In this document: piece by piece, positions 7,229-46,454 of the stretch
Layout of the letters: each line of letters begins with the position of its first letter
Position numbering within the stretch: the first letter of the stretch is position 1
Origin: an uncultured Chloroflexia bacterium
Lineage (GTDB): Bacteria; Chloroflexota; Limnocylindria; Limnocylindrales; CSP1-4
Assembly (NCBI GenBank): GCA_963813535.1
Contig: CAWEZH010000003.1
Span: 736,001-800,000, forward strand
Direction: 5' to 3'
DNA length: 64,000 nt
Translations under genes and position numbers: made by a program
The notes under the pieces: generated by a model
The model's database searches: none
What the model saw: the letters and a program-made list of their open reading frames with translations, nothing else
What the model was told of the DNA's origin: nothing

Positions 7229-7905
7229 GCCGGCTCGGTCGGCGCGACGGGATCGCGTCGGTCGCCCGAGGCAACGACCTTGTGCGCCTCTGCCGCGAGG
7301 TCCTCGATCGCTGCGAGGAGCTCGGAGACACGGGCCATGGTCTCGCCTTCGAACGAGGGGTCGCCCGTCGACGGGAGATTGATCAGGACGTTCGCGGCGG
7401 CACCGCGGGCGGCCGCCTCGCCGAGCATCGCTGCGACGTCGACGTCGCTCGCCGCGTTCGGATTGCTCCTGCCGGCCAGCACCTCGGCGGCCCCGACCAG
7501 ATCGAGGCAGGCCTCGAGGCACTCCAGCGGGACCTCCGATGCGCGTCTGGCGGCGGTCCGCATCGCCGTCGATCGAGCTTCGATCTCGGCGTCGGTGTCG
7601 CGCGGCAGCTTCAGGGCAGCCGCGAAGCCGGCGTATGCGTGGGCGTCGTCGTCGGCGATCGTGAGGAACCGATCCGACAGGCGACGGCCGGTCTCGAGTG
7701 CCCACGCGAGCATCGGCTCATGGTCGACGTACTTGGGACGGCCCGTGGTGAGCGAGGCCACCATCGTCACGAGACTCGCCGCGAGGCCTGCGGCGACCGC
7801 CGAGGCACTGCCGCCGCCTGGCACCGGTTCGGACGACGCGAGCCGGGACGCGAACTCGTCGATCGTGACGTCGCGGAATCGGCCTTCGGGTCCACTGGGG
7901 TGCAC
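7225..7905 (-). CDS. fchA: Cyclodeaminase/cyclohydrolase family protein (FchA-like, FTCD C-terminal domain)
   Basis: LASSEPVPGGGSASA, NPNAASD, NVLINL. Confidence 0.85.
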   Translation of the reverse strand: MHPSGPEGRFRDVTIDEFASRLASSEPVPGGGSASAVAAGLAASLVTMVASLTTGRPKYVDHEPMLAWALETGRRLSDRFLTIADDDAHAYAGFAAALKLPRDTDAEIEARSTAMRTAARRASEVPLECLEACLDLVGAAEVLAGRSNPNAASDVDVAAMLGEAAARGAAANVLINLPSTGDPSFEGETMARVSELLAAIEDLAAEAHKVVASGDRRDPVAPTEPA

Positions 7906-7986
7906 CGCGCGATTGTAGGTTGCCGCCCGCACCGTTCGTACGCGCGAGTGCGCGCGCCGGTCCGCTCGGTGTCGAGACGCGTCGAA

Positions 7987-8017
7987 GGGGCGGGTGCGGT
8001 ACCGGCGCACCCGCCCC
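7987..8017 (-). terminator. GC-rich hairpin downstream of the small SOS gene
   Basis: GGGGCGGGTGCG / CGCACCCGCCCC perfect 12-bp stem; poor U-tract. Confidence 0.5.
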
Positions 8018-8073
8018 CACTCGACAATTCGCCAGCGGCGTCAGGGAGGGACGACCCCGCTGGCCTTCGGTGG

Positions 8074-8343
8074 TCAGGCCGCGGTGCGCGCCTCGTCGAG
8101 CGCGGTCACGGTCCAGCGCTTGGATCGATGCTGATAGGACAACGCGAGTCGTGCCCGCGGTGTCTGGACCTCGAACAATGTGCGAGGGCCGGTGATGACC
8201 GGATAGGCCGCCGCCTCCTCGCGGATGACGGCGAGATCGGTGATCGGTAGTCGTTCGGCGCCCCAGGTGATCTCCCTGGGCCGTCCGCTGAACCAGTCGG
8301 TCCGGACGTGGACTGCGACCGGCGCGACACGGGTGAATGCCAT
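8074..8343 (-). CDS. Small SOS-regulated protein, DUF6504/ImuB-C-terminal-like
   Basis: 89 aa, GRPREITW...FEV...L.Y....RW pattern; AAGGAGG SD; two SOS boxes upstream. Confidence 0.7.
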   Translation of the reverse strand: MAFTRVAPVAVHVRTDWFSGRPREITWGAERLPITDLAVIREEAAAYPVITGPRTLFEVQTPRARLALSYQHRSKRWTVTALDEARTAA

Positions 8344-18787: not shown

Positions 18788-21700
18788 CTGAGCGACGACG
18801 GTAGCGGTTATCCGATCCAGTTCGCGAAGGTGCAGCGTCCCGCACTCCGCGATGAGACGCTCGAGCGCCCCCGGCTCCTCGACTGGCTGCGCGCCAAGGT
18901 CCACGGGAGGGTCGTCCTGATCCTCGCCGACGCGGGTTACGGCAAGACGACCCTCCTCGCCGACTTTTCGCGCCGGACCCGGATGCGCACGCTCTGGTAC
19001 CGGCTCGATCCCGACGATCGCGACTGGGTCACGTTGCTTCACCACCTCGTCGCCGCCGGTCGGGAGCATGACCCGACCTTCGCTCCGGCGACCGCCGCGT
19101 GCCTCGCCGAGGTCGGAACGGCCGGAACGACACGCGAATTCGCGGTCTCGACCTTCGTCGGGGAGCTCCCGACCATCGCCTCGTCGGGAGCCGTGCTGAT
19201 CTTCGACGACTTCCACCTCGTCGACGACGCACCTGACGTGCGCTACATTGCGCGCGAGCTCGTGGCTCGTGCACCCGAGCGCCTCACGATCGCGTTCGCG
19301 AGCAGACGGGCACCGACGGTGCCGCTATCCAGGTTGCGAACCGTGGGTGACGTGGCCGAGCTCGGCACCGACGACCTGCGATTCGACGCCACCGAAACGG
19401 CGCAACTGTTCACCGAGACGTACGGCCGACAGCTGGATCCCGACGTCCTCGAGGACCTCGCCGCGCGGACGGAAGGGTGGATCGCGTCACTCCAACTCGT
19501 GCAGGCGGCACTCCGGGACCGCACGCCGGGCGAGATCCGTCGCTTCGTGCGAACCCTGAACGGAGCGGACCACGACCTCTACGACTACCTGGCAGAGGAG
19601 GTCGTCGGCGACCTCGACGACGAGCTCCAACGGTTCCTGATGGAGACGTCGATCCTCCAGGTCGTGACACCCGAGTTGGCTGAGGTCGTGTCGGGTCGCG
19701 ACGCGGTCGACGTCGCTCGGCTGACGACCGTGGCCGAGCGGCTCACCCTGCTTGGACGGCTGTCTGGCGCTCCGCGGACCCATCAGCGGTATCACCCCCT
19801 GGTCCGCGGCTTCCTCGAGGCAAGACTTCGGTCGACCGACGGTCCCGAGGCGGTCGCAGGGCTTCACCGTCGTGCTGCGGCAGCCGCGGCCGGGACGGAC
19901 TGGAAGGTGGCGGCCCACCACTACCGGGAGGCCGGCGACACCGAGGCGATGCTCGGCGTCGTGGCGGGCGCGATCCCGACGATCATGGGCAATGGACAAT
20001 ACGCCCTCGCCGAGGGCTTCATCGGCCCGATCTCGGCCGACCGCCGCCCGCTGGGCTTCGACCTGATCCTGAGCCGCGTCGACATGCAGCAGGGCGACTA
20101 CGAGGCGGCGATCGCTGCGAGCCAAGCGGTCCTCGACTCGGGCATCACCGACCCAGTCCAACGCGATCACGCACTGCTCAACCTACGTGACACTCGCCAC
20201 CAACTATGGCGACGGTGATCGAGCCATGGCCTTGGCAAAGGAGTTGAGCGCAACTGCTTCTGATCCGAACCTTCGGGCAATTGCAGACGTGTCAGCCCGC
20301 ATCCTGTCGGTCCAAACGGAGAGTGATCTGAGGCGGTTAACAGGCGGTTGAGAACGATGGCCCAGGCGCAACGTGAGACGAGATCGCATCACTTCGGGGT
20401 CACGATGCTCAATCTTGCGCTGAATTCCCTCGTGCAGGACCGCGTCTACGACTCTTTGGCAGAAGCGACTGAAGCCTTGGAGGCATTGGGTTCGACATCG
20501 GGCCTCGTCGAGCAGTCTGCCGCCCGAGTACTCCTCGCATCTATCTGCCTACGACTTGGGCGGCCATGAGGCGGCCGAGAAATACATCGACGAACTCGGA
20601 TATGGCGCGAAGACATACATTCCAAATGAGGCCTTCGCCGATGCGGCTGGCGCATGCGACTCGTACGGATCCCGACTGTTGGCCACGAGATGCCTCGGTC
20701 GAATCGGCGATTCCTCCATTCACACTCGTGCTGACAGGCGAAATCCTGGCAATCACGCGTGCCCGGATGGCCATTCGTAGCCGTGACGCCGCAGCCGCGG
20801 AGCATGAACTCGAGGGGTATCCGGACGGTGTCCCCACCACGGTCGGCGCCATCGCTGAACTTCAACAGGTGCGCGCCCACCTCGGATTGATCGCGCGGCG
20901 ATCCGAGAGCCGGGAGGTTGTTGGAAGAGGCGTCGTCGACGGCCATCGGCCAAGGCGCCACCGCGATGCGCCGCGTGTGTGACCTTCTCATCGCCGCAAG
21001 TCACGGAGCTGAGGAACTATCCAAAGCCTGTGTTGTCATTGGCCAGTCCACGCCGTGGCATCTGAGCTTTGTCGCGGAGGACATCGTCCCGTCCCTCGAG
21101 CAACTGACAGCGGAAGCGCGATTGGTAGTCGAAGGAGCCGCAAACCTACATCGTGAGCGGTGGCGGACCGCGCTGCGGCAAAGCCTTGACTTCGACATAT
21201 CGACCCAATATCGAGGCAGCGCGCTTGTTGGAGCAGGTGGGCGATCGCTCGGATATCTCGCGACTCCGAGGGATCGCGAGGTCGGCGAGAAGGCGGCCCG
21301 ATGCGGCAGGTCTTGGACGACAGTTGTCGCGGCGACTCGCTGACCGCGTGTATGTCGAGGACCAGGGTCGGATTGCGATCGAAATCGGGGGCCGCGCCGT
21401 CCTGGGTTCGACGGTTCGCCGCAAGGTTCTCGCGATGCTGTCGTACCTAATTACCCGCCCTGAACTCTCAGCCACTCGAGATCAAGTACTCGACGCCATG
21501 TGGCCGGAGCTCGACCCGGAGGTCGCGGTCAACTCTCTCAATCAGACGATCTATTTCCTGCGGAGGGTGCTGGAAGAGAATTACTCGGACGACTTGTCGC
21601 CAGGCTACGTTCACCACGACTCCGACGTGGTGTGGCTCGATGCTGAACTCGTCTCCAGCCGGAGCGTGGAATGCCGGCGAGCTAATTCGGGAGTTTCCGG

Positions 21701-22059
21701 CACGGCCGACTCCGGACGACGTGGAGCGGCTCACGCTCCTCTATCGCGGCCGCTTTGCGCTCGACTTCGAGTACGAGGAGTGGGCTGCCGCGTATCGCGA
21801 CAACCTCCACGCGACATACCTAGAGATAGTCGAGAGGTCCGTGCTGGATGACTTCAGATCGGGCCACTACGACCGAGGGATCACGATCGCGCGGCGAGCC
21901 CTCGAGGTCGACCCAAGCGCAGAGCAAATCGAGGCATGCCTGCTTCGTCTGTACCGCGTAACGGGAGCTCATGCGGCGGCCGCGGAGCAGTACGCCCACT
22001 ACGCAGCGGTGATGCGCGAAGAGGTCGGAGTTGAGCCTCCGCCGCTCGAGACCCTATAG
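18788..22059 (+). CDS. MalT-like STAND ATPase-TPR regulator with C-terminal wHTH/BTAD, broken by ~7 frameshifts (error or pseudogene)
   Basis: ADAGYGKTTLL, LIFDDFH, TEGW, YHPL in 18614-20218; DAMWPELD...NSLNQTIYFLRRVL, LYRGRFA...EEW, ALEVDPSAE, VGVEP in downstream frames; start uncertain. Confidence 0.8.
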
Positions 22060-22079: not shown

Positions 22080-22109
22080 TTGACCGGTTTACTTAGCCAT
22101 CCCTACAGT
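22080..22109 (+). promoter_or_regulatory. sigma70-type promoter for the riboswitch-peptide operon
   Basis: TTGACC-N18-TACAGT. Confidence 0.6.
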
Positions 22110-22153
22110 CCGGGCACTTGCTAGTACCCCAGTACTAGGAAGAAACGTCAAGA

Positions 22154-22228
22154 CGCTCGGACGCGGCGATGTCTCACCTGAAATGGGCACTTAGGGTGAG
22201 GCGGAGCGACTAGTGCAACCGACCGACT
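22154..22228 (+). ncRNA. Cyclic di-GMP-II riboswitch
   Basis: TCGGA...GATG-stem(GTCTCACCTG/TAGGGTGAGGC)-AAATGGGCACTT loop-GGAGC-TAGTGCAACCGACCGA; GCAC/GTGC pseudoknot; matches the class-II consensus as recalled. Confidence 0.9.
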
Positions 22229-22247
22229 TTCAGTCAGGTCGGTTTTC
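22217..22247 (+). terminator. Riboswitch expression-platform terminator
   Basis: AACCGACC-GAC-TTTCA-GTC-A-GGTCGGTT-TT; the 5' arm overlaps the aptamer 3' strand. Confidence 0.75.
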
Positions 22248-22343
22248 GTGTTCCCCAGAGCACGAAGGCCGCGAAGGAGGAACGCCCGTGGCTCCCGAGT
22301 CCGCCAAGGCCTGGTAGGCGAGTCCCAGCGATGAGGGACCGAA

Positions 22344-22421
22344 TTGGTGCGCATCCTCGTTGCGCTCTCGAGCGTGGCGATGATCGCCCTGGCTGGAGGG
22401 GCTTCTCTTAGAGGCTTCTAG
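22344..22421 (+). CDS. Unannotated small peptide precursor MVRILVALSSVAMIALAGGASLRGF
   Basis: TTG/GTG start after GAGGGA, TAG at 22419-21; hydrophobic leader + GGA + short core; lies between the riboswitch and the HD-GYP gene. Confidence 0.75.
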   Translation: MVRILVALSSVAMIALAGGASLRGF

Positions 22422-22489
22422 TACTGATGGCCCATTACCTCACTCGCGGCGCTGGCCGTAGAGTGAGGAAAGAGGCCGATCAGGTAACG

Positions 22490-23896
22490 ATGCCCAAGTC
22501 CCTCAAGCTTTACGTCGCAGTTGTCGTGGTCATCGGCGCCTTGGCGCTGGTGGCCGCGACTTTCGTGTTCCCGCCGAAACCCGGCATCGCGATCGATCTG
22601 CCGGGTTCTACTGGCAGCCCGACGACGCCTGAATACGCGCTGGGCGTGCTGTATTGGATCGCGCTCACGCTAATCGGATCTGCATTTCCAGTTCAGCTTC
22701 CCCGGGGCACCCAACAGGCGGTCGGAATCGCCCCGATCATGGGGTCGCTGTTCCTCGGCGGACCCGCGGTGGCCGGCTGGGTGGCTGCGATCGGGACGAC
22801 AGAGCTTCGCGAACTCAGAGGTCGTATTCCCTGGTACGGGACCCTGGCAAATCATGCGGCGCTGGTGCTGCCGGCAATCGTCGCGGGCAGCGTTCGCGAA
22901 GGACTGCTTGTGCTCGGTGCGCGGCGTGGCGTGGGACTTCGCTGTCCGGAATGGTCGCCGCTTTTGTGTTTATCGCCGGGAACCTCGCGCTGGTCTCATC
23001 TGGCACTTGGCCTTCGGACCGGACAGTCACCGAGGGCCGTACTCCTTGGGGACATCCGCGGAATCACAGGCGGGGTTATTGCCCTTGCGCCTCTCTCCTG
23101 GCTAATGACTGTCGTCTATGCCGTCCAGTGGTGGGCCACCGCCCTGTTCGCCGTTCCCCTGTATTCGACCCGGCTGGCGTACGCGCGCTTCATCGAGATG
23201 CGCGAGATGTTCACCCAGACGATCGGTGCGCTCGCCGAGGCCGTCGACAAGCGCGACCCGTTCACGGCCAAGCACAGCCATCGGGTGAAGGAGATCGCGG
23301 TCGACATCGGCCGCGTGATGCACGTGACCGACGCGGAGCTGGAAGCGCTCGAGTGGGGCGGCCTGCTGCACGACGTCGGCAAGATCGGCGTCCCGGATCG
23401 CGTCCTGCTCAAGCAGGAGCGCCTGAACAAGGACGAGCGGATGATCATGAACGCGCACCCGGTCCTCGGTGCGCAGATCATCGCCCCGGTCACGAAGCTC
23501 GCTCCGGAGCTTCCGATCATCCGCCACCACCACGAGTGGTACAACGGCTCGGGCTATCCGGACCGCCTGATCGGCGACGAGATCCCCAAGCTCGCCCGCA
23601 TCCTCCACGTGGCCGACGCATTCGAGGCGATGACCGCCGCCCGCCCCTACCGGATGACCCCGCTGACGGCGGAGCAGGCGCTCGCCGAGCTGCGCAAGTT
23701 CGCCGGCATCCAGTTCGACCCGGTCGTGGTCGACGCCTTCGTCAACACCCACCACGTCGAGGGCGTCCAGGATCCGGGCCGCACCGTCCAGCCGCGGCCG
23801 ATCCCGCTCCTCGGCCAGGCTGCCGCCACCCGGCTGGCCGACCCACCCGCCACCGGCACGATGCCGTCCACCGCCAAGGCACCCGAGCAAGTCTGA
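22490..23896 (+). CDS. Membrane-sensor HD-GYP cyclic-di-GMP phosphodiesterase
   Basis: N-terminal multi-TM region; HS.RV, HDVGKIG, HHHEWYNGSGYP, ADAFEAMT..RPYR; probable compensating indels at 22920-23000. Confidence 0.92.
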   Translation: MPKSLKLYVAVVVVIGALALVAATFVFPPKPGIAIDLPGSTGSPTTPEYALGVLYWIALTLIGSAFPVQLPRGTQQAVGIAPIMGSLFLGGPAVAGWVAAIGTTELRELRGRIPWYGTLANHAALVLPAIVAGSVREGLLVLGARRGVGLRCPEWSPLLCLSPGTSRWSHLALGLRTGQSPRAVLLGDIRGITGGVIALAPLSWLMTVVYAVQWWATALFAVPLYSTRLAYARFIEMREMFTQTIGALAEAVDKRDPFTAKHSHRVKEIAVDIGRVMHVTDAELEALEWGGLLHDVGKIGVPDRVLLKQERLNKDERMIMNAHPVLGAQIIAPVTKLAPELPIIRHHHEWYNGSGYPDRLIGDEIPKLARILHVADAFEAMTAARPYRMTPLTAEQALAELRKFAGIQFDPVVVDAFVNTHHVEGVQDPGRTVQPRPIPLLGQAAATRLADPPATGTMPSTAKAPEQV

Positions 23897-23929
23897 CGAA
23901 GCGGGAGCCCGCTCCAGCATCATGACGCG

Positions 23930-25957
23930 ATGCTGATCGGCGGGATCCTCCTCGGCCTGCTCCTCGGCCTTCTCGCCGGCGGAAGCCTCCGGAACCTCGC
24001 CGAGATCCGGCTCCGCTGGACCGGGCTGCTCGTCGCCGCCGTGGTCATCCGGTTCGCGACCGAAGCCGCGCTCGACGCCCAGATCGGTGCCGTCGAGGCG
24101 CTCCGGCTGCCGCTGCTCGCCAGCGCGTTCGGGATGCTGCTCGTCACGCTCTGGGTCAACCGGTCGTACCCGGGCCTGAGCCTGGCGTTCCTGGGCGTCC
24201 TGGCGAACGCGCTCGTGATCCTCGCGAACGGCGGGTACATGCCGATCTGGGCGCCGGCGCTTGCCGCCGCCGGTCTGACCGAGGCGGACGTCAACCGCGC
24301 GTTCCACACGATCGTCGACGCCGGAGCGTCCGACTTCCTCGGTCGATTGCTGATCCTCGGGGACGTCATCCCGGTGCCGGTCGACGTCATCCGAAACGTC
24401 TACTCGCTTGGCGACCTGTTCCTGACACTCGGCCTCGCATTCTTCCTGTTCGCCGGGGTCGTGCGCGTCCCGTCGGTCATCGAGGAGGAGGAAGACGCGG
24501 AGCTCCGGCGTCGCCTCGCCGCCGAGCAGGCGGGACAGGGGAGTCGATCGGGCCTCGCCCCGGGTCTGGAACGGACCGCGGCGCTCCAGCGGCCGACCGT
24601 GCTCGGCGCCGGCCGTCCGCGGCTGGCCGGACCGAGCGCCAACCCGGTCGCGGAGACGCCACCGCCGCGCGGCGCGATCGCGATCCCGGGGCTCACCCCG
24701 GATGTCCTCGCTCGCCTCCGACGCCATCCGTATGTCCGCCTCGCGCTCAACGGGTCGTTCAGCGCACTGTGGTCCGGCCAGCTGATCTCGTTGTTCGGCG
24801 ACCGGGTCCACCAGGTGGCGATCGCGGCGATCGTGTTCGTCCTGACCGACTCGCCGATCGCGGTCGCCCTGGTGTTCGTCGCGGCGACGCTCCCCAACCT
24901 GGTGTTCGGGCCGATCGCGGGGACCTTCGTCGATCGCTGGGACCACCGCGAGGTCCTGGTCGTGAGCGACATCCTGCGTGCCGCGGTCGTCTTCGTGATG
25001 CCGATCGTAGCCTCGCTGAACATCTGGCTGGTCTATCCGCTCGCGTTCCTCCTGACCACGATCTCGATCTTCTTCCGGCCCGCGCGGGTCGCGATCCTGC
25101 CCCGGCTCGTGCGGGAGGACGAGCTGCTCACCGCGAACTCGGCGCTCTGGATCGGGGAGACGTTGGTGGACGTCATCGGCTTCCCGCTGGCCGGGCTGTT
25201 CGTGGCGCTCGTCGCCGACGCAGTGTCGATCGCGTTCTGGTTCGACGGCGCAACCTACCTCGCCTCGGCGCTCCTGCTGAGCACGCTCATCCCGCGGCCG
25301 GTCCGTACCGAGGCTCCGACTGGTGCGACCGCCGGCGCGACGACGGGCGGGTTCCGTGCGGAACTCATGGAGGGCTGGCGGTTCCTGCGCAACGACGCCG
25401 TGCTGCTCGCGAATACGCTCCAGGCCGTGGTCGCCCAGCTCACGATCGGCGTCCTCTTCGGTCAGACGATCGTCTACGCGGAACGGGTGTTCGGGCCGCA
25501 GGGCTACAACGGGCTCGCCGTCTACGGCTTCATCGAGGGCAGCCAGGGCGCCGGCAACCTCATCGGCGGGTTCGTGATCGGTCTGGTCGGCGCCGGACTG
25601 GCGAAGGGCAAGTTGATCATCGCCGGCTACACGGTCTTCGGCCTGTTGACCACCGCGATGGCGCTGTCAGGCGACCTCGCCGTCGTCCTGGCCATGGCCT
25701 TCGGCATCGGCATCGCCAACATGGTCTTCATCATCCCGAGCCAGACGCTGTTCCAGGAGCGCACACCGGGCAATCTCATCGGCCGGGTCGTGAGCTTCCG
25801 GTTCTCGCTGGTGTCCGGCGCGATGACGCTGTCGATCGGGCTCGGCGGCGTGCTTTCCGAAGCCATCGGCGTGACAACGACCATCGCGGCGTTCGGCATC
25901 GTCACCGCGGTGGCCGGCATCGCCGGCTGGTTCGTGCCGGCAGTCCGCGAAGCGTGA
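23930..25957 (+). CDS. DUF5317-like membrane domain fused to an MFS (DHA3/EntS-like) transporter
   Basis: GGSLRNL..IRLRW, N..VILANGGYMP, LGDVIP, YSLGD in aa 1-180; LWSGQLISLFGD, GTFVDRWD, VVSDILRA in the MFS part. Confidence 0.85.
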   Translation: MLIGGILLGLLLGLLAGGSLRNLAEIRLRWTGLLVAAVVIRFATEAALDAQIGAVEALRLPLLASAFGMLLVTLWVNRSYPGLSLAFLGVLANALVILANGGYMPIWAPALAAAGLTEADVNRAFHTIVDAGASDFLGRLLILGDVIPVPVDVIRNVYSLGDLFLTLGLAFFLFAGVVRVPSVIEEEEDAELRRRLAAEQAGQGSRSGLAPGLERTAALQRPTVLGAGRPRLAGPSANPVAETPPPRGAIAIPGLTPDVLARLRRHPYVRLALNGSFSALWSGQLISLFGDRVHQVAIAAIVFVLTDSPIAVALVFVAATLPNLVFGPIAGTFVDRWDHREVLVVSDILRAAVVFVMPIVASLNIWLVYPLAFLLTTISIFFRPARVAILPRLVREDELLTANSALWIGETLVDVIGFPLAGLFVALVADAVSIAFWFDGATYLASALLLSTLIPRPVRTEAPTGATAGATTGGFRAELMEGWRFLRNDAVLLANTLQAVVAQLTIGVLFGQTIVYAERVFGPQGYNGLAVYGFIEGSQGAGNLIGGFVIGLVGAGLAKGKLIIAGYTVFGLLTTAMALSGDLAVVLAMAFGIGIANMVFIIPSQTLFQERTPGNLIGRVVSFRFSLVSGAMTLSIGLGGVLSEAIGVTTTIAAFGIVTAVAGIAGWFVPAVREA

Positions 25958-26039: not shown

Positions 26040-26675
26040 GTGACCGAGCCCCGTGACCGCTCGCCCGACGAGCCGCTCGAGCCGACCGATGACGAGGCAC
26101 CCGAGGAGGCCGTCGCGGCCGACGCGCCCGACGATCGGGCGCCGAGCGACGCTAGCGACATCGACGCCGAAACGAGCGACGCCGACGTCGACAAGATCGA
26201 CGACGAGCTGCTCGACGATGCCGAGGCTGACGCCGAGAGCGACGCCATCGAGGTCGACGATTACGAAGCGGCCCTCCGTGAGGTCGCAGGCGAGGCGCCG
26301 CCGGTCGCCGACGCCCCACGGCCGTCGTCCACGAAGCGACGCGGCGAGACGAAGGCACCAGCTCGCGCACCGACACCGTCCGAGGTCGCGGTCCACATCC
26401 GGGAGGACGTCTCGAAGGTGTACGTCCTGGTCGCGGTCGGCGTCTTCGTGCTGATCCTGCTCAACGCCTTGCTCTTCGGAACGGGCGGGTTGCTGCGGCC
26501 GCTACCGACTCCGACACCGAGCGCCAGCGAGAGCCCCAGCGCCAGCCCGGGCGCATCGGCGTCCGGGAGCCCGGGCGCATCCCCGTCGGACAGCGCCGCA
26601 CCGTCGCCGAGCGCCGCCCCGTCGCCCAGCGCAGCACCGTCGCCCAGCGCCGCACCGTCGCCCAGCGCCTCGTAG
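26040..26675 (+). CDS. Acidic single-TM protein with a Ser/Pro/Ala-rich C-terminal tail
   Basis: D/E-rich N-terminus, TM helix, (SAAPSP)4. Confidence 0.75.
   Translation: MTEPRDRSPDEPLEPTDDEAPEEAVAADAPDDRAPSDASDIDAETSDADVDKIDDELLDDAEADAESDAIEVDDYEAALREVAGEAPPVADAPRPSSTKRRGETKAPARAPTPSEVAVHIREDVSKVYVLVAVGVFVLILLNALLFGTGGLLRPLPTPTPSASESPSASPGASASGSPGASPSDSAAPSPSAAPSPSAAPSPSAAPSPSAS
26592..26663 (+). repeat. 4 x 18-bp coding tandem repeat (SAAPSP)
   Basis: AGCGCNGCNCCGTCGCCS x4. Confidence 0.9.
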
Positions 26676-40497: not shown

Positions 40498-42639
40498 ATG
40501 GCACGAACCCTCCCGGATCCGCGACGCCCGATCGCCCCATTCGGACCGCTCGCCAGCGCTCCCGTTCGACTCCTGCTGACCAGCGCCACGGTCCTGTTCG
40601 TCGAGCTGCTGCTGATCCGGTGGATCCCGGCGAACGTCCGATACGTGGGGTTCTTCAGCAACTTCCTGTTGATGGCGAGCTTCCTCGGCATCGGCCTTGG
40701 CATCCTGCTCGGCCGGCGCGGCGTCCGTCTGCCGATCTCGCCCTTCCCGATCCTGCTGCTCGTGACGGTCCTGCTCGTGTACGGCGCGCAGCTCAACATC
40801 CAGGCCCGCGACCCGAACGAGTTCTTCTTCGGGCTCGAGCAGTCCTCCAGTGCGGACACCAACTTCATCGTCCTGCCGCTGCTCGTCGTGCTGGTCACGG
40901 CCCTCATCGCGACCCTGGCGCTGCCCCTCGGCCCGCTGTTTCGGGCGATGCCGCCGCTGAAGGCGTACGCGATCGACATCGCCGGCTCGATGCTCGGGAT
41001 CGCGGCGTTCGCGGCACTCGCGTTGCTGGGGACCGACCCCGCCATCTGGTTCGTCGTCACCGGCGTCCTGCTCCTGCTCCTCGCGCTCGGCTCGGGGATC
41101 ACCCCGTGGTCGGCGATCGGGGGTGCCGCGATCGTGGTCGTGATCGCGTCGACGGCGATGGTCGCCGTCGCGTCGGGCGACGTGTGGTCACCGTATTACC
41201 GGGTCTCGGCATGGACGTCCCAGGAGGAGCGGACGTCGCTCGTCGATCCGGCGAGTCGACCGTTCAGCCTGTCGGTCGATGGCATCCCGCACCAGAACAT
41301 CCTCGATGGCGAGGCAGCCTCACGGAGCCAGGTCCACGATCAGGTCTACCGCTGGTTCCCGGAGCGGACGTTCGGCAAGGTCCTGGTGATCGGTGCCGGG
41401 TCGGGCTCGGACGTGGCGCTCGCGCTGGCGCGCGGCGCCGGCCATGTCGACGCGGTGGAGATCGACCCGGGGCTGGCCGCGATCGGCCGTCGGTATCACC
41501 CGGAAAAGGTCTACGACGACCCGCGGGTCACGGTCCACGTCAACGACGGGCGCGCGTTCCTCAACGCCACGACCGAGCGATACGACCTCGTCGTCTACGC
41601 CCTGACCGACTCCCTGACCCTGGCCAGCTCTGCCGCGAATGTCCGCCTGGAGTCATTCCTCTTCACCGAGCAGTCGTTCGCCGCGGCCAGGGATCATCTT
41701 GCGCCGGACGGCCTGTTCATCATGTACAACCTCTACCGCGAGCCATGGATCGTGGCCAAGCTGGACTCGATGCTCGGCACGGTCTTCGGTGACGATCGGA
41801 TGGTCCGGCTCGTCGGCCGCGTCGAGGCCGTGCTCGCCGCAGGGCCTGCGGTCACGGCTCTGGCTGGCGGACCGCCTCCCGGCGATCGCGTGGACGCCGT
41901 CCCGAGCGTCGGCCAGCCGACGCCACAGCACGCCACGGACGACTGGCCGTTCCTGTACCTCCGGACGGCGACGATCGCGCCGTACTACGTCGCGGCGCTC
42001 GTGTTCATCCTGGTCTTCGGTCTCATCGCCGTCCTGACCGCGGCTCGGGTGACGTCGACGCCGATCCGCCGCTTCAGTCCGCACTTCTTCGTGCTCGGCG
42101 TTGCGTTCATGCTGCTCGAGACGAAGAGCCTCGTGTCCTTCAGTCTCCTGTTCGGGACGACGTGGATCGTCAATGCTCTGGCCTTCTTCGCGATCCTGGC
42201 GAGCGTCCTGCTGGCGATCGGCATCAATGCGCGATTCGGGCCGCTGAAGCCCGCGTACCTGTACGCCGGGTTGTTCACGGCGATCGCCCTCGCCTACCTG
42301 TTGCCGCCGGACCGCTTGCTCATCGAGCCCGCCGCACTCCGCTACCTCGTCGCCGGCACCATCGCCTTCGCGCCCGTGTTCTTCGCGAACCTCGTCTTCA
42401 CGCATTCATTCCGTGATACCGAAGCGGCCGACATGGCGTTCGCGTCCAACCTGCTCGGGGCGATGGTGGGTGGCGCCCTGGAGTACGTCGCGCTCGTGAC
42501 CGGCTTCCAGGCCCTCCTGCTCGTCGTGGTGGCGCTGTACGTGTCCGCCTACGTGTTGTCCCATCGCTACCGACTCCTGGCCGACCGCGACCTCGTCTAC
42601 GAGCGACCGGGCGGTCTCGAGAGCGCGCCGAGCGGCTGA
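40498..42639 (+). CDS. Membrane protein with a central spermidine-synthase-like SAM-binding domain
   Basis: VIGAGSGSD, VEIDP, DGRAFL, YDLV, TDDWPFLY flanked by TM blocks. Confidence 0.82.
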   Translation: MARTLPDPRRPIAPFGPLASAPVRLLLTSATVLFVELLLIRWIPANVRYVGFFSNFLLMASFLGIGLGILLGRRGVRLPISPFPILLLVTVLLVYGAQLNIQARDPNEFFFGLEQSSSADTNFIVLPLLVVLVTALIATLALPLGPLFRAMPPLKAYAIDIAGSMLGIAAFAALALLGTDPAIWFVVTGVLLLLLALGSGITPWSAIGGAAIVVVIASTAMVAVASGDVWSPYYRVSAWTSQEERTSLVDPASRPFSLSVDGIPHQNILDGEAASRSQVHDQVYRWFPERTFGKVLVIGAGSGSDVALALARGAGHVDAVEIDPGLAAIGRRYHPEKVYDDPRVTVHVNDGRAFLNATTERYDLVVYALTDSLTLASSAANVRLESFLFTEQSFAAARDHLAPDGLFIMYNLYREPWIVAKLDSMLGTVFGDDRMVRLVGRVEAVLAAGPAVTALAGGPPPGDRVDAVPSVGQPTPQHATDDWPFLYLRTATIAPYYVAALVFILVFGLIAVLTAARVTSTPIRRFSPHFFVLGVAFMLLETKSLVSFSLLFGTTWIVNALAFFAILASVLLAIGINARFGPLKPAYLYAGLFTAIALAYLLPPDRLLIEPAALRYLVAGTIAFAPVFFANLVFTHSFRDTEAADMAFASNLLGAMVGGALEYVALVTGFQALLLVVVALYVSAYVLSHRYRLLADRDLVYERPGGLESAPSG

Positions 42640-42649
42640 CCGGCGGCGA

Positions 42650-44908
42650 CTACGGCTGCGTCGCGTCCCCGAAGAGACGGCGCAGGAGGAAGTACTCGGG
42701 CCGTGGGCGGTCATCGGTGATCAACGCGCCCGGCCCGACGTACTCGCGAACCGCAGCGCCGGCCAGCCACGTCTGCCGATCGATGACGTCGATCCAGGCG
42801 TCGATGTCGGACGCCGGCGAGTCATACGCCGACGAGATGTCCTCGAGCACCCCCGGGCGAGCCAGGACCGCTCTCGCCACCTCCGGATCGAGCTCGATCG
42901 GCGCGTCGGAGCCCATCATGTAGAAGCCGTAGCCGCCCGCGCCGCGCACGATCAGCACCTCGGGATACACCTCGGCGAAGGTCCGGATGTGCTCCTTGAG
43001 CTCCGACTCCCTGGCCCCGAACGGGACCCATTGCATCATCACGCCGTCCTGGGTGAGGTGGGCGTGCCCGGCCTGGTAATACTCGAGCGACGAGATGACC
43101 GAGGCACCCGAGCTCTCGATCGGTGGCGGCGGGTCGGTCACGATGATGTCGAAGCGCTCCGTCTCGAGCTCCAGGTGGTTGCGACCGTCGGCCACGACCA
43201 GGTGCCCGTCCGGGTCGGCCAGGACGGCCTCGGCGTCCGGGTAGTACCAGCCGAACATCCGCGGCACGGAGGGCACGAGCTCGACCACGTCGGTCCGCAT
43301 GCCGGTGATGAGCGACGACCGGAACGCGGTGCCCATGCCGAACGCGACGACCAACGCCCGGTCGGACTCCGGACGGGCGATGAGCGGCAGGACCGGCATC
43401 AGCTTCGCGTCGACGGTGAGGAGCGTCATCGACGTTCCCGCCACCCACAGCTCCGGCGTTGACGACTTCTGCCCGGCCTGGACCGAGGCGATCTCGTCCT
43501 CGCTCGACGCGAAGATCCGGCCGCCCAGTGACTCGATCAGGGCGACGTTCGGCTGGACGATCGCGCCGGGCCGCGTCGACACGAAGATCGTCACCACGAT
43601 CATGCCGACGGCTGCCGATGACAACCACGCCGATCGTCGGCCGGCGAGGATCGCGAGCACCGCCCCGAGGGCTGCGTTCGTGATCGCCAGCACGATGATG
43701 ATCGCGGGCGACCCGATCGTCGGCATGAGCACGAACGGGATCACGACGCTACCGATGATCGCGCCGCTCGTGTTCGACGCCAGGAGGGCGCCCGATTCCG
43801 ATCCGGCTTCACCGAGCTCGTCGCGGAGCAGCGCCGAGGCCGTCGGGAAGGCGATGCCGAGGATGGTCGCCACCGGCAGCACCACCACGATCGCGGCGAC
43901 GACGAGGGCACGTACGGACGCGACCGGGTCGCCCGGGTCGAGCGGTCGAGGCGAGCTGATGACGGTGAACAGGCCCACGATGGCGAGGGCCGCCACGGCG
44001 ACCTGCGAGAACGCGAGGACCCGCAGCGGACTGCGGATCCGCGGTCGCAGCCAGGTGAACAGGACGGCGCCGATGGCGATCCCCGTGAGGAACAACGCGA
44101 GGACCGCGGTGAAGACGTACGTGTAGCCCCCGGTGCCGGAGGTCAGCAAGCGCGTCCAGGTGACCTGGTAGCCGAGCGAGGTCAGGCCGGACAGGAAGGC
44201 GATCGCGAGCGCCAGGGCGATCGATGGTCGGCGCCCCGGACCGCTCTCGACGGCAGCGGGAGCCGCGGTCGTCCGCCGCTCCGGAGATCCGACCGGGCGG
44301 TCGTCGCGCGCCAGCCACAGGGCGATCAGGCCGGCGATCGCTGAGCATGTCGCGCCGACGAGCAGCGCGCCCGAGAGGCCCAGCAGCTCGATCAGGACGA
44401 GGCCGGCCACGAGCGTGCCCAGCACGGCGCCGATGGTGTTCGCCGAGTACAGCCGCCCAAAGGCCTCGCTCAGGGCCTCGTCGCGGGCGAAATGCCGGAC
44501 GAGCGCCGGGAACGTCGCGCCCATCATCACCGTGGCCGGAGCCAGCGCCAGGACGGCGAGCGCAAGCCGGACGAGGACGAGCATCGGCGTGCCCTCGATC
44601 GACGGATACACGGCGCGATACGCCTCGTGGATCAGCCGGAACGACAGCGGCGTGGCGATGACGACGACGACCAGCAGCAGCTCGAGCACGCCGTACATGC
44701 GAAGCGGTGACCGGACGCGATCGGCGATCCGCCCGCCGAGCACCGCGCCGATCGCCATGCCTCCGAAGAAGCCGGCGAGGATGGCCGACACGGCCTGGGT
44801 CGTGTTGCCGAACACGAGGACGAGCTGGCGGGACCAGACGATCTCGTAGATGAGGCCCGCGGCCCCCGACAGCACGAAGATACCCACGATGGGGGCGGTT
44901 CGGCGCAT
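42650..44908 (-). CDS. Fused MFS-like/spermidine-synthase-like protein
   Basis: SGAAGLIYEIVW (repeated), YSANTIGA, VELVP, DGRNHL, FDIIVTDPPPP, TDDRP. Confidence 0.85.
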   Translation of the reverse strand: MRRTAPIVGIFVLSGAAGLIYEIVWSRQLVLVFGNTTQAVSAILAGFFGGMAIGAVLGGRIADRVRSPLRMYGVLELLLVVVVIATPLSFRLIHEAYRAVYPSIEGTPMLVLVRLALAVLALAPATVMMGATFPALVRHFARDEALSEAFGRLYSANTIGAVLGTLVAGLVLIELLGLSGALLVGATCSAIAGLIALWLARDDRPVGSPERRTTAAPAAVESGPGRRPSIALALAIAFLSGLTSLGYQVTWTRLLTSGTGGYTYVFTAVLALFLTGIAIGAVLFTWLRPRIRSPLRVLAFSQVAVAALAIVGLFTVISSPRPLDPGDPVASVRALVVAAIVVVLPVATILGIAFPTASALLRDELGEAGSESGALLASNTSGAIIGSVVIPFVLMPTIGSPAIIIVLAITNAALGAVLAILAGRRSAWLSSAAVGMIVVTIFVSTRPGAIVQPNVALIESLGGRIFASSEDEIASVQAGQKSSTPELWVAGTSMTLLTVDAKLMPVLPLIARPESDRALVVAFGMGTAFRSSLITGMRTDVVELVPSVPRMFGWYYPDAEAVLADPDGHLVVADGRNHLELETERFDIIVTDPPPPIESSGASVISSLEYYQAGHAHLTQDGVMMQWVPFGARESELKEHIRTFAEVYPEVLIVRGAGGYGFYMMGSDAPIELDPEVARAVLARPGVLEDISSAYDSPASDIDAWIDVIDRQTWLAGAAVREYVGPGALITDDRPRPEYFLLRRLFGDATQP

Positions 44909-44963
44909 CGGCGCAGTCTCGCATGCCGTCTCGCCAGACGTCGGTTCACCTACCATCGCGGGG

Positions 44964-46454
44964 ATGTCCACCGGGATGTGGCGGCTCCTGAGCGACCGAG
45001 GACCGATGGGCCGGTCGATCTCGGCGGTCATCCTGGCCGGGGCCTGGGTGTCGTCCTGGCGTCCGCAGATCGACGAGGACGCCTGGTGGCATGTCGCCTA
45101 CGGTCGGGTCATCGTCGAGAGCGGAGCGATCCCGCCCGTCGAACGTTTCAGCTGGCTGACCGAGGGCTCGCCACTGTTCCTGCACAGCTGGGCGTGGGAC
45201 GTGCTGCTGTCCTGGGCGGATCGGCTCGGAGGACCGACCGGGATGAGCATCCTCGGCCTGCCGTTCCTGGCCGCCGTGGTCGGGCTGCTGTGGCTGGTCA
45301 TCGGATCGGTGGCGCCGGATATCCCGCCGATCCCGCGCGCGTCGCTGGTGCTCATCGGCATGCTCGCCGGCCTAGGGTTCTGGGGCGCCAGGGGCCTCAC
45401 GCTCGATGTCGTGTTCGTGCTCGCGACCGTCCTCGTCATCTCGACCTACCTCGCGCGGGGCTCGAGGACCGGGCTCTACGTGCTGCCGGTGATCGGCCTG
45501 CTCTGGGCGAACCTCCACGGCAGCGGCGTGCCGGCCCTCGGCGTGTGCCTCGCGACGGCGCTTGTCGCGATCCCGCTCGCGCGACGACTCGGGTCATGGC
45601 CGGATCGATCGGTGGGGCCGCTCGCCGTGGCATCGGGGGTCGCGCTCGCCGCGACCCTCGTCAACCCATACCTGTTCCGCCTCTGGACGTATCCGCTCGA
45701 TCGAGGCGTGGCGAGCGCATTCTCGCCGGCGATCGTCGAGTGGCGACCGCCCGATCTCGCGGCACCGGAGCTGTTCGTCGCCAGGCTGCTCCTCCCGCTC
45801 GCTGTAGTGGTGCTCTGGCGGACGCGTGCGTCGGTGGCGCACCCCTTCGTCATCCTGATGGCGGCGGGCTGGACGTTCGCTGCGCTCGGGGCGGCCCGGT
45901 TCGTCCCGATCGCGGCCGCGATTCTCGTGGTCGTCGTCGCGGCGTCGGCGAGCGCGACCTCGTCCGAGGCCGGCGAGGAGAACGAGGCTGGTTCACAGCC
46001 GGCACCCGGAGGGCTGGCGGTGGCCGTCGTCACGGCAGCGATCGTCGCCGTCCTCGTTGTCATCGGCGCGAGCTACATCACGCCGGCGGCTCAGACGGCC
46101 GCGATCGCCCACCGCGAGCCTGTCGCGGCCGTCGAGGCGCTCCGCGCCGCGAACTGCCCAGGGCGTCTGCTCGCGGCGTACGGCTGGGGCGGCTATGTCA
46201 TCCGTCTCGCCGACCGGCCCGTGGCCGCGTACGGGAACTCGCCCGAACGCGCCCTGACCGAGCAGACCGCGGTAGAGCTCGTGACGAGCGATCCCCGGCC
46301 CTGGCTGGAGGAGCATGCCGTCGATGTCGTGCTGGTCCATGCCGGCGGTCCGCTGTCGCGATGGCTCGACGAGGCGGACGACTGGGACCGGGGCTACGAG
46401 GATGCCCAGGCCACCATCCACGTTCGGGGCGACACCCCCGGCTGCGCGTTCTGA
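44964..46454 (+). CDS. Polytopic membrane protein, probable GT-C
   Basis: DAWWHVAYG...FSW, LWANLHGS, IVEWRP, YGWGGY. Confidence 0.7.
   Translation: MSTGMWRLLSDRGPMGRSISAVILAGAWVSSWRPQIDEDAWWHVAYGRVIVESGAIPPVERFSWLTEGSPLFLHSWAWDVLLSWADRLGGPTGMSILGLPFLAAVVGLLWLVIGSVAPDIPPIPRASLVLIGMLAGLGFWGARGLTLDVVFVLATVLVISTYLARGSRTGLYVLPVIGLLWANLHGSGVPALGVCLATALVAIPLARRLGSWPDRSVGPLAVASGVALAATLVNPYLFRLWTYPLDRGVASAFSPAIVEWRPPDLAAPELFVARLLLPLAVVVLWRTRASVAHPFVILMAAGWTFAALGAARFVPIAAAILVVVVAASASATSSEAGEENEAGSQPAPGGLAVAVVTAAIVAVLVVIGASYITPAAQTAAIAHREPVAAVEALRAANCPGRLLAAYGWGGYVIRLADRPVAAYGNSPERALTEQTAVELVTSDPRPWLEEHAVDVVLVHAGGPLSRWLDEADDWDRGYEDAQATIHVRGDTPGCAF

Follow-up and report, generated by a model that had tools for sequence, protein, structure and literature searches.

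A conserved peptide, HD-GYP and DUF5317 operon behind a c-di-GMP-II riboswitch in Limnocylindria: a candidate membrane signalling module of the Chloroflexota

The operon and its riboswitch leader

The window analyzed here is a 64,000-nucleotide stretch of contig CAWEZH010000003.1 from an uncultured Chloroflexia bacterium of the class Limnocylindria, and its subject is an operon on the plus strand at positions 22080–25957. The operon comprises a promoter-like site, a class II riboswitch for c-di-GMP (cyclic diguanosine monophosphate), two micro-open reading frames (sORF1 and sORF2), a gene for a membrane HD-GYP protein, and a gene in which DUF5317 is fused to a transporter of the major facilitator superfamily (MFS). 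The original prediction, made from the letters alone, had placed a promoter, a riboswitch, a hydrophobic peptide, a membrane HD-GYP protein and a DUF5317-MFS fusion here, and all five were verified at these positions. To these elements the present analysis adds sORF1 behind a strong ribosome binding site (RBS), a candidate internal promoter at 22434–22464, and a gene for a SARP-like regulator directly upstream. Two families of Limnocylindria share the locus in its entirety. We read it tentatively, at somewhat less than even odds, as a conserved membrane signalling module of the Chloroflexota that in Limnocylindria lies under a c-di-GMP-II riboswitch.

The promoter-like site P1 (22080–22109, plus strand) has the form TTGACC-18 nt-TACAGT and was identified by a consensus scan and by conservation. 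It is the only such site between 21900 and 26300, where shuffled sequences give an expectation of 0.2. Its hexamers are kept in all 14 aligned leaders; the −35 hexamer is invariant, the −10 hexamer retains TAnAGT, and the spacer is variable.

The riboswitch aptamer (RF01786) occupies 22150–22233 on the plus strand. It scores 64.4 bits (E 4.5e-12) against the covariance model, which has a gathering score of 53.5 bits, and the match spans model positions 1–84 of 84. It is the sole copy in the 3.28-Mb, three-contig genome. The same genome has 20 GGDEF matches, which suggests that c-di-GMP signalling is in use. The expression platform follows at 22217–22267 on the same strand; it has two hairpins and a terminator-like site. 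The 5′ arm of hairpin 1 (22217–22244, −16.2 kcal/mol) lies within the 3′ part of the aptamer, and the hairpin is followed by UUUCGUGUU; hairpin 2 (22244–22267, −11.8 kcal/mol) takes up the U-run that follows hairpin 1. Because hairpin 1 and the ligand-bound aptamer are mutually exclusive, the riboswitch is predicted to be an ON switch. In the second family the RBS and start codon of sORF1 are within a hairpin that carries a copy of the aptamer GGGCAC strand, which suggests that translation of sORF1 is the gated step.

The aptamer is covered by contigs from the RNA libraries of three studies. One of them (X15, record 2) matches the window letter for letter over 22147–22265. An X17 contig spans the aptamer and sORF2 but has 89 letters of a relative in place of the sORF1 part, and an X18 contig joins the aptamer to sORF2 across the same gap. 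All runs contained only small shares of the stretch (at most 0.16). The contigs leave most of the region of the HD-GYP membrane domain uncovered, and depth is not comparable between parts. Adapter-adjacent contig ends lie at 22135, 22147 and 22150.

The gene at 22490–23896 (plus strand) encodes a predicted HD-GYP phosphodiesterase (HD_5, 135.2 bits in the Pfam scan) with a MASE9-like, multi-pass N-terminal domain. Its open frame extends from 22427 to 23896, and the conserved start is the ATG at 22490 rather than 22427. The motifs HDVGK and HHHEWYNGSGYP are present, and the protein thus combines an HD_5/HD match above the cut-off with the HD, HHE and GYP motifs. Among solved structures, V-cGAP3 (5z7c, E 1.7e-31) is nearest to it in sequence, followed by PmGH (4mcw). 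MASE9 (PF20972; Pfam cut-off 24.3 bits) is the sole Pfam match to the membrane domain. It is above the cut-off in the second-family orthologue L083 (40.3 bits) and in L054 (27.1 bits), and identity between the N-terminal domain of the window copy and second-family copies is as high as 44.5%. About 35 codons of this domain (22900–23010, approximately residues 140–175) are frame-scrambled relative to L036, L031 and L032, and the expected sequence for the stretch lies in another frame of the window; the scrambling is probably due to two compensating assembly indels. We know of no reported ligand or partner of MASE9, and HD-GYP enzymes are to our knowledge the least understood of the c-di-GMP phosphodiesterases.

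The last gene of the operon as delimited here (23930–25957, plus strand) encodes a fusion of 675 amino acids (aa), in which DUF5317 (residues 25–173) precedes a DHA3-type MFS transporter (residues 275–669; both from the Pfam scan). DUF5317 (PF17248) scores 84.2 bits over profile positions 1–150 of 151, well above its cut-off of 25 bits, and MFS_1 (80.5 bits) and MFS_3 (78.1 bits) also lie above their cut-offs. Relatives are named 'DHA3 family macrolide efflux protein' in databases.

The micro-ORF peptides

The gene sORF2 (22344–22421, plus strand) encodes a mini-protein of 25 aa from a TTG start, with a basic N-terminus, one hydrophobic span and the ending AGGAS-LRGF-stop. In most relatives the peptide has 29 aa and starts at an ATG, and in the second family it has 31–36 aa; the window carries one extra A (22342/22343), which places the ATG at 22331 out of frame. 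The consensus of the 25 sequences in alignment A4 is a basic N-terminus, a hydrophobic span of 17–20 residues, and AGGAS-[LF]-[KR]-G-[FW]-stop. The ORF is found in 30 of 35 scanned loci, in 26 of them with an in-frame canonical start and in 4 with the motif but an upstream indel.

sORF2 is a protein-coding gene under purifying selection. Among 15 intact sequences of the first family (f1), with indel rows and the second family (f3, in which the length differs) dropped, the ratio of nonsynonymous to synonymous polymorphism (pN/pS) is 0.40 in frame and 0.26 over the last 17 codons; the two remaining frames give 1.14 and 1.63. In 28 of 29 columns the third codon position is variable. Both patterns point to constraint on the encoded peptide. 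The C-terminal half is almost invariant across the genus, in which the neighbouring proteins are only 54–60% identical. The lack of a conserved peptide ORF at homologous loci would have refuted the original prediction, and such an ORF is found. No Pfam or NCBIfam family matches either micro-ORF peptide, and the 7 database homologues of a 47-aa relative from L049 are all unnamed or called 'hypothetical protein'.

The size and hydrophobicity of sORF2 resemble those of small type I toxins, and one reading would make it a toxin-like peptide induced by c-di-GMP. Its stable linkage to DUF5317 and HD-GYP genes across families, its conserved polar tail and its sense orientation at the head of the operon all speak against a toxin, which we consider most improbable. 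Nor was any antisense RNA or antitoxin-like feature seen, though no search aimed at one was made.

The gene sORF1 (22288–22317, plus strand) has 9 codons, starts with GTG 7 nt past the RBS AAGGAGG (22274–22280), and ends K-A-W-stop; it is the tail of a listed 34-aa frame. An intact ORF of 7–17 codons that ends [KR]-[GSA]-[WFY]-stop is present in 27 of 31 aptamer loci, 37–65 nt past the aptamer. Three of the four exceptions have apparent one-base indels and one is N-masked. The variants K-P-W and K-Q-W also occur. In L028 and L030 a unit of 8 residues is duplicated in frame, and L154 (on the same contig as L028) and L166 likewise read as two sORF1 units. sORF1 has been seen only in the two families in which DUF5317 is fused to MFS. 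Among 19 c-di-GMP-II leaders from other Chloroflexota families, no comparable K-x-W micro-ORF of 7–17 codons was found behind an RBS (one of these leaders is from the unpublished genome G184, which is also included in the 43/151 tally). The K-x-W end is common to sORF1 and the tails of the sORF2 family. The product of sORF1 would be a soluble 9-mer, and it is most simply explained as a second ligand, or as a mimic of the sORF2 tail.

The position of sORF1 would also fit another role, in which both micro-ORFs act only in cis, as leader ORFs whose riboswitch-gated translation governs downstream expression by coupling or Rho protection, and the peptides are inert. The start of sORF1 37–65 nt past the aptamer in all 27 intact cases, the second-family hairpin that holds the sORF1 RBS and start together with the GGGCAC copy, and the restriction of sORF1 to loci with a riboswitch are all as expected of leader ORFs. 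The selection on sORF2 is nevertheless at the amino-acid level, and relatives of sORF2 exist without any riboswitch. In sORF1 the K-x-W-stop is kept while the preceding codons change, the duplications preserve both frame and motif, and no comparable micro-ORF was found in the 19 leaders of other families. A role in cis alone is therefore quite improbable.

DUF5317 and its neighbourhoods

Residues 1–190 of the fusion protein were modelled with AlphaFold2 with a mean predicted local distance difference test (pLDDT) score of 95.4 and a predicted template modelling (pTM) score of 0.87. The model consists of five long helices, with a sheet of four strands inserted between helices 4 and 5. Conserved residues of DUF5317 include N77, N93, N100, D145, S159 and D162, and two conserved aspartates, in GD-IP-P and S-x-GD, are on the sheet. 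Application of the positive-inside rule places the sheet outward and the linker to the MFS domain in the cytoplasm; a sheet so placed would be on the same side of the membrane as the sORF2 tail. A PDB fold search with the model gave no match at E ≤ 0.001 among 65 weak matches (best E 2.2, TM score at most 0.32). A known protease fold, one of the candidates considered for DUF5317, gains no support from this search, in which no solved structure, proteases included, matched and no lead to a function emerged. Sequence searches assigned DUF5317 to no peptidase family, and no conserved His or Lys and no D-[TS]-G or GxGD motif were seen in it. In the ESM Atlas the only similar clusters are themselves DUF5317, from Actinomycetota, Bipolaricaulota and Chloroflexota.

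Co-folding, one of the checks that the original prediction had proposed, gave a pass for sORF2 with DUF5317, but a weak one. DUF5317 residues 1–190 and the 32-aa sORF2, both from L083, scored 0.49, and the best of three controls scored 0.02. The runs share at least 98% of contacts, and the pLDDT of the partner is at least 72. The mark for a pass was reached by 58 of 80 solved complexes and by 2 of 110 mismatched pairs, though only 7 of those 80 complexes, and both of the passing mismatches, lie at 0.60 or under.

These results bear on the central proposal of the original prediction, a quorum-sensing pheromone that is cleaved by DUF5317 and exported by the MFS domain. In its general form, the MASE9-HD-GYP enzyme would sense a secreted peptide, so that cells signal to one another and the output is c-di-GMP; either DUF5317 would clip the sORF2 tail at the outer face, or the fused MFS would export the sORF1 9-mer. 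Several features fit such a signal. sORF2 resembles a signal peptide followed by only 4–5 residues, and in other families the tails extend 5–16 residues past the G-A-[PSD] junction; two conserved aspartates are on the predicted outward sheet, and the co-fold of sORF2 with DUF5317 lends weak support. sORF1 has the same K-x-W end, its in-frame duplication of 8 residues in some genomes is as in multi-copy precursor peptides, and it occurs only in the two families with the putative exporter fusion. Cleavage by DUF5317, however, gains no support from a confidently modelled domain that matches no solved protease and has none of the motifs sought. Export by MFS is likewise unsupported, as a hydrophobic span of 17–20 residues needs no MFS exporter and fits a stable membrane anchor. 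L087, moreover, has the MFS fusion but no sORF1. Pheromones typically diversify, whereas the sORF2 tail is nearly invariant in the genus and conserved across the class. We consider a secreted signal unlikely.

The fusion protein is spread across the genus at 54–97% identity. A draw of 401 Chloroflexota genomes yielded DUF5317 in 117 (including the unpublished genome G266). The long fused form is found throughout the sampled members of families f1 and f3 (DUF5317 in 23/23 and 16/16), and the four small genomes of family f2 gave no DUF5317 match. In the genus, the aptamer is upstream of the operon in all 14 loci with enough upstream sequence; the scan covered 20 sources, and the other six are five short contigs and a paralogue locus. 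The aptamer is also present in 16 of 20 loci of other genera, in 11 above the gathering score and in 5 below it (E 5e-9 to 7e-5). Two of the four loci without a hit lack upstream coverage, one (L073) has a degenerate aptamer-like stretch, and one (L087) has no riboswitch. L087 is from a third family and has the peptide, HD-GYP and DUF5317-MFS genes without riboswitch and without sORF1, which indicates that the peptide goes with the proteins and not with the RNA. Among 54 loci with at least 2.9 kb of upstream sequence, HD-GYP is present in 52, the aptamer-core motif (by regular expression) in 51, sORF2 in 47 and the strict sORF1 motif in 40; most of the misses inspected are motif variants or indels. 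In L074 (G400:C5) the gap between HD-GYP and DUF5317-MFS is about 3.1 kb, unlike all other loci, and may reflect an insertion.

Fusions of DUF5317 to GGDEF or HD-GYP were sought among long proteins, and the 120 closest ones listed are all DUF5317-MFS forms (118 also carry MFS families). Among 34 representatives of at least 398 aa, 33 have DUF5317, 22 have MFS_1, 1 has Metalloenzyme, and none has GGDEF or HD. A search with a narrower alignment, directed toward other phyla, returned only close relatives among the best 80 of 455 loci.

In other Chloroflexota families DUF5317 also occurs as a standalone gene. Thirty such loci were analyzed with 1.5-kb flanks; HD-GYP is adjacent in 14 and MFS in 2. 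A small single-pass ORF lies directly upstream of DUF5317 in 14 of the 30 by our judgement, with L046 (spurious) and L065 and L066 (ends of a neighbouring MFS gene) left out. These peptides end in a G-x-G-A-P or A-G-G-A-P junction followed by a short Gly-rich or aromatic tail. Where HD-GYP precedes DUF5317, a peptide of about 30 aa is upstream of HD-GYP in 4 of 6 loci examined, and all four peptides end L-A-[SA]-G-A-D-x-[KQR]-(x)-(G)-W-(x)-stop. Short single-pass ORFs with an AGGA(S/P/D) end and a short tail are thus found beside DUF5317 and HD-GYP in other families of the phylum, in support of the original prediction. One of the four loci (G117) has two identical copies of the peptide gene behind a c-di-GMP-II aptamer of 52.7 bits; in the other three, no riboswitch was found in the 0.85–1.2 kb scanned. 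Twenty standalone DUF5317 loci were also scanned and have no riboswitch at the gathering score. This distribution across families indicates a conserved core of peptide, membrane HD-GYP and DUF5317. The riboswitch, sORF1 and the MFS fusion appear to be additions in Limnocylindria, with the riboswitch apparently present in G117 as well.

Three further observations concern these neighbourhoods and aptamers. In six loci (L041, L045, L048, L049, L051 and L053) a conserved direct repeat (TTTGAAGCCTG twice) lies about 150–240 nt upstream of DUF5317, before peptide genes of 47–48 aa; no Rfam family was found at the repeat in the five scanned (L053 was not scanned). L198 (G140:C31, 3037–3967, minus strand), from a different Chloroflexota family, has two tandem c-di-GMP-II aptamers followed by three small ORFs (40, 54 and about 55 aa), a further set of small ORFs under riboswitch control. 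They are composed of repeats of EIEWTEPK and SEHGVNW, and W-stop is the ending of two of them. The interval G145:C1:276108–288628 has four c-di-GMP-II aptamer matches in 12.5 kb, an unusual density, and there are six in that genome.

The standalone loci also bear on a reading in which the peptides serve the DUF5317-MFS transporter as small subunits or accessory factors, and HD-GYP is a feedback enzyme that is merely co-regulated and physically unlinked. Transporter operons often begin with genes for small single-pass subunits, KdpF and AcrZ among them. In keeping with such a subunit, 8 of the 14 standalone peptide-DUF5317 loci have no HD-GYP within 1.5 kb, an MFS gene adjoins DUF5317 in L065 and L066, and the co-fold, weak as it is, pairs the peptide with DUF5317. 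The peptide-HD-GYP-DUF5317 triad nevertheless recurs in several families and in two gene orders, which argues for a functional link to the enzyme, and in four families the peptide gene is directly upstream of HD-GYP and not of DUF5317. A role confined to the transporter appears improbable.

Several other features flank or lie within the operon of the window. A palindrome, CTAGTAC-CCCA-GTACTAG (22121–22138, plus strand; folding energy −12.1 kcal/mol), is just 3′ of the −10 hexamer of P1 and is conserved in alignment A1. It could be a 5′ RNA hairpin, an operator, or one side of a long-range RNA pairing. Its half-site TAGTAC reappears exactly at the stop codon of sORF2 (22419–22424) in most of family f1. 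The candidate internal promoter P2 (ATTACC-19 nt-TAGAGT; 22434–22464, plus strand) ends 25 nt 5′ of the HD-GYP start codon. Within the genus both elements, one TAGAGT-like and one ATTACC-like, are kept at a varying distance from each other, and the second family has TGnTAGACT directly after the sORF2 stop; the consensus scan that found P1 did not pick up P2, which was identified by this conservation. P2 suggests that the riboswitch may not be the only control on the enzyme genes.

Upstream of the leader, a gene at 21153–22059 (plus strand) encodes a SARP-like transcription regulator with a winged-helix Trans_reg_C domain (28.9 bits) and a BTAD domain (52.8 bits; both Pfam). Its reading frame is broken in the window (21153–21851 and 21640–22059). 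The tblastn coordinates in relatives such as L027 place both parts contiguously in one frame, and the split is therefore probably due to an indel in the assembly. By tblastn, 30 of 33 related loci have a homologue immediately before the leader, and the regulator may be an activator of P1. The end of its gene just precedes a conserved block, GGGATAGGTAAGGTGCCGTA, which abuts the −35 hexamer of P1. Compared with relatives, the window has three probable indel sites, in the regulator, in sORF2 and in the HD-GYP membrane domain, and the same type of sequence noise occurs in many related metagenome-assembled genomes.

Downstream, a co-oriented gene at 26040–26675 (plus strand) encodes a protein whose N-terminus is acidic, with a single hydrophobic span and a long tail rich in Pro, Ser and Ala; the Pfam scan assigned it to no family. 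Similar frames lie 3′ of the fusion gene in relatives (10 of 33 loci by tblastn, many flanks being too short to tell), and the gene may belong to the same transcription unit. The original prediction had also suggested that the operon controls a surface-glycan region of about 37 kb; only 2 of 10 downstream ORFs scanned with Pfam have glycan-related matches (PIG-L and a weak Alg6/GT87), which lends the suggestion no support. Farther along the window, at 40498–45031, are two ORFs with spermine/spermidine-synthase-like domains, one of which is fused to MFS (792 aa, minus strand). The second DUF5317 paralogue of the genome (L004, G000:C2:1724000–1740000, 7460–8194) has as neighbours an HPPD-like dioxygenase, an S9 peptidase and a cupin-adenylate-cyclase gene.

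A candidate feedback module and its precedents

We propose, with a rough probability of 0.45, that c-di-GMP switches on small membrane peptides that partner a complex of DUF5317 and the MASE9-HD-GYP enzyme, and that these feed back on c-di-GMP. The analysis establishes the arrangement of the parts, their conservation, the selection on sORF2 as a protein and the domains of the two large proteins; the direction of the switch, the membrane topology, the binding and the effect on the enzyme are what we infer in this proposal. At high c-di-GMP, the bound aptamer would withhold the 3′ strand from hairpin 1 and so permit expression of sORF1 and sORF2. Read-through would continue into the HD-GYP and DUF5317-MFS genes, which probably also have the basal promoter P2. 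The sORF2 peptide would insert with its N-terminus inside and its C-terminus outside, and its tail, AGGAS-x-[KR]-G-[FW], would meet the outward sheet of DUF5317 with the two conserved aspartates. The unit of peptide and DUF5317 would then set HD-GYP activity via the MASE9-like membrane domain, and the phosphodiesterase would lower c-di-GMP and close a negative feedback loop. A feedback loop between riboswitch and phosphodiesterase was part of the original prediction, and the gene layout fits it.

A number of observations weigh against this proposal. The U-tract of hairpin 1 is poor and is itself part of hairpin 2, which weakens the prediction of both the type and the direction of the switch. 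The HD-GYP motif has N where the aligned 5z7c has D (HHEWYNGSGYP compared with HHEKLDGTGYP), and the best solved relative, 5z7c, is specific for 3′3′-cGAMP, so the substrate could differ. Genus copies of the membrane domain are below the MASE9 cut-off (20.0, 16.9 and 14.6 bits), and the window copy, which is frame-scrambled in this domain, has no MASE9 match at E ≤ 0.01. The second DUF5317 copy of the genome has no peptide or HD-GYP gene nearby, and 16 of the 30 standalone DUF5317 loci have no HD-GYP within 1.5 kb; the partnership is thus frequent, not obligatory. By the calibration of the tool, a co-fold pass as weak as this one is, without a good prior, more often wrong than right. The RNA-library contigs may include DNA or derive from relatives, and they are blind to transcript ends and levels.

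An extension of the proposal gives each peptide its own part. sORF2 would be a tethered ligand whose K/R-G-W/F tail sits on the DUF5317 sheet, the sORF1 peptide, the same tail as a free 9-mer, would be exported by the MFS domain fused to DUF5317 and compete for the same site on the producer and on its neighbours, and the MASE9-like domain would read the occupancy. The shared K-x-W end, and the occurrence of sORF1 only in the two families with the MFS fusion, fit such an exported mimic, although the extension as a whole is doubtful. If it were true, each cell would make its own c-di-GMP state known to others, since both peptides are produced under a c-di-GMP riboswitch, and would match it to that of the population, a form of quorum sensing without a kinase or a transcription factor.

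The closest precedent is in Clostridioides difficile, in which small membrane proteins of the CD1980.2 family are under class I c-di-GMP riboswitches (PMC13724677, 2026). There, as in the operon described here, a c-di-GMP riboswitch directly governs genes for small membrane-associated proteins that annotation had missed. The CD1980.2 proteins are 58 aa long and multicopy, are controlled by class I OFF switches and act on sporulation, and homologues outside C. difficile are not reported (PMC13724677). In Limnocylindria the riboswitch is of class II and predicted to be ON, the peptides have 9 and 25–36 aa, and they share an operon with HD-GYP and DUF5317. The two sets are distinguished here by the published description of the CD1980.2 family.

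The same architecture of multi-pass sensor and HD-GYP is found in the MASE9-HD-GYP proteins T. maritima TM1467 and S. venezuelae HdgA (10.1101/2021.11.05.467447). MASE9 was defined on TM1467, and the authors proposed that it binds a ligand within the membrane (10.1101/2021.11.05.467447). A term search of the main text of this preprint finds neither riboswitch nor DUF5317 (10.1101/2021.11.05.467447), and unlike the proteins described there, the genus copies here are below the Pfam cut-off.

Two groups of better known systems are similar in part. One is that of single-pass peptides of about 30–50 aa that bind and tune a larger membrane protein, such as MgrB-PhoQ, SafA-PhoQ, AcrZ-AcrB and KdpF, among which MgrB acts in negative feedback. 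Here the target would instead be a c-di-GMP phosphodiesterase together with a DUF5317 protein, and expression would be set by a second-messenger riboswitch rather than by the transcription factor of the regulated system itself. The other group is that of Agr, Phr/Rap and SHP/Rgg, in which genes for a membrane protein and a transporter adjoin that of a short precursor, signal-like at its N-terminus and active in a brief C-terminal part. The layout of a short precursor gene adjoining membrane protein and transporter genes is shared. The Pfam scan, however, found no homologue of AgrB, Eep, an ABC exporter, a histidine kinase or an RNPP protein in the operon, and the PDB fold and sequence searches of DUF5317 found no processing protease related to known ones. 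In addition, the tail is conserved rather than diversified, and the output here would be a phosphodiesterase. Other Chloroflexota c-di-GMP-II aptamers belong to the same RNA family and precede ORFs with signal-like starts, as in surface or secreted proteins. By contrast, the first regulated product in this operon would be that of a 9-codon ORF, and an enzyme encoded in the operon should degrade the ligand.

In the literature library searched, no paper names DUF5317 or PF17248 and none combines Limnocylindria with c-di-GMP; the preprint that defined MASE9 is the only one there to treat it as a sensor domain, the other paper with the term being on colorectal cancer. The triad of peptide, DUF5317 and HD-GYP is undescribed. 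Small membrane proteins under riboswitch control are known in kind, and so is feedback on a second messenger by way of a phosphodiesterase.

The conserved genetic link gives a membrane peptide of about 30 aa, DUF5317 and a membrane HD-GYP protein each a testable partner, and the riboswitch would mark the peptides as an output of c-di-GMP. The operon would be a second, independent case of riboswitch-controlled micro-proteins, in an uncultured lineage of soil and freshwater, and it indicates that what a riboswitch regulates first can be genes of 7–10 and 29 codons that annotation has overlooked. Should the peptides prove to be released, the module would represent a new coupling of cell-cell signalling to a second messenger.

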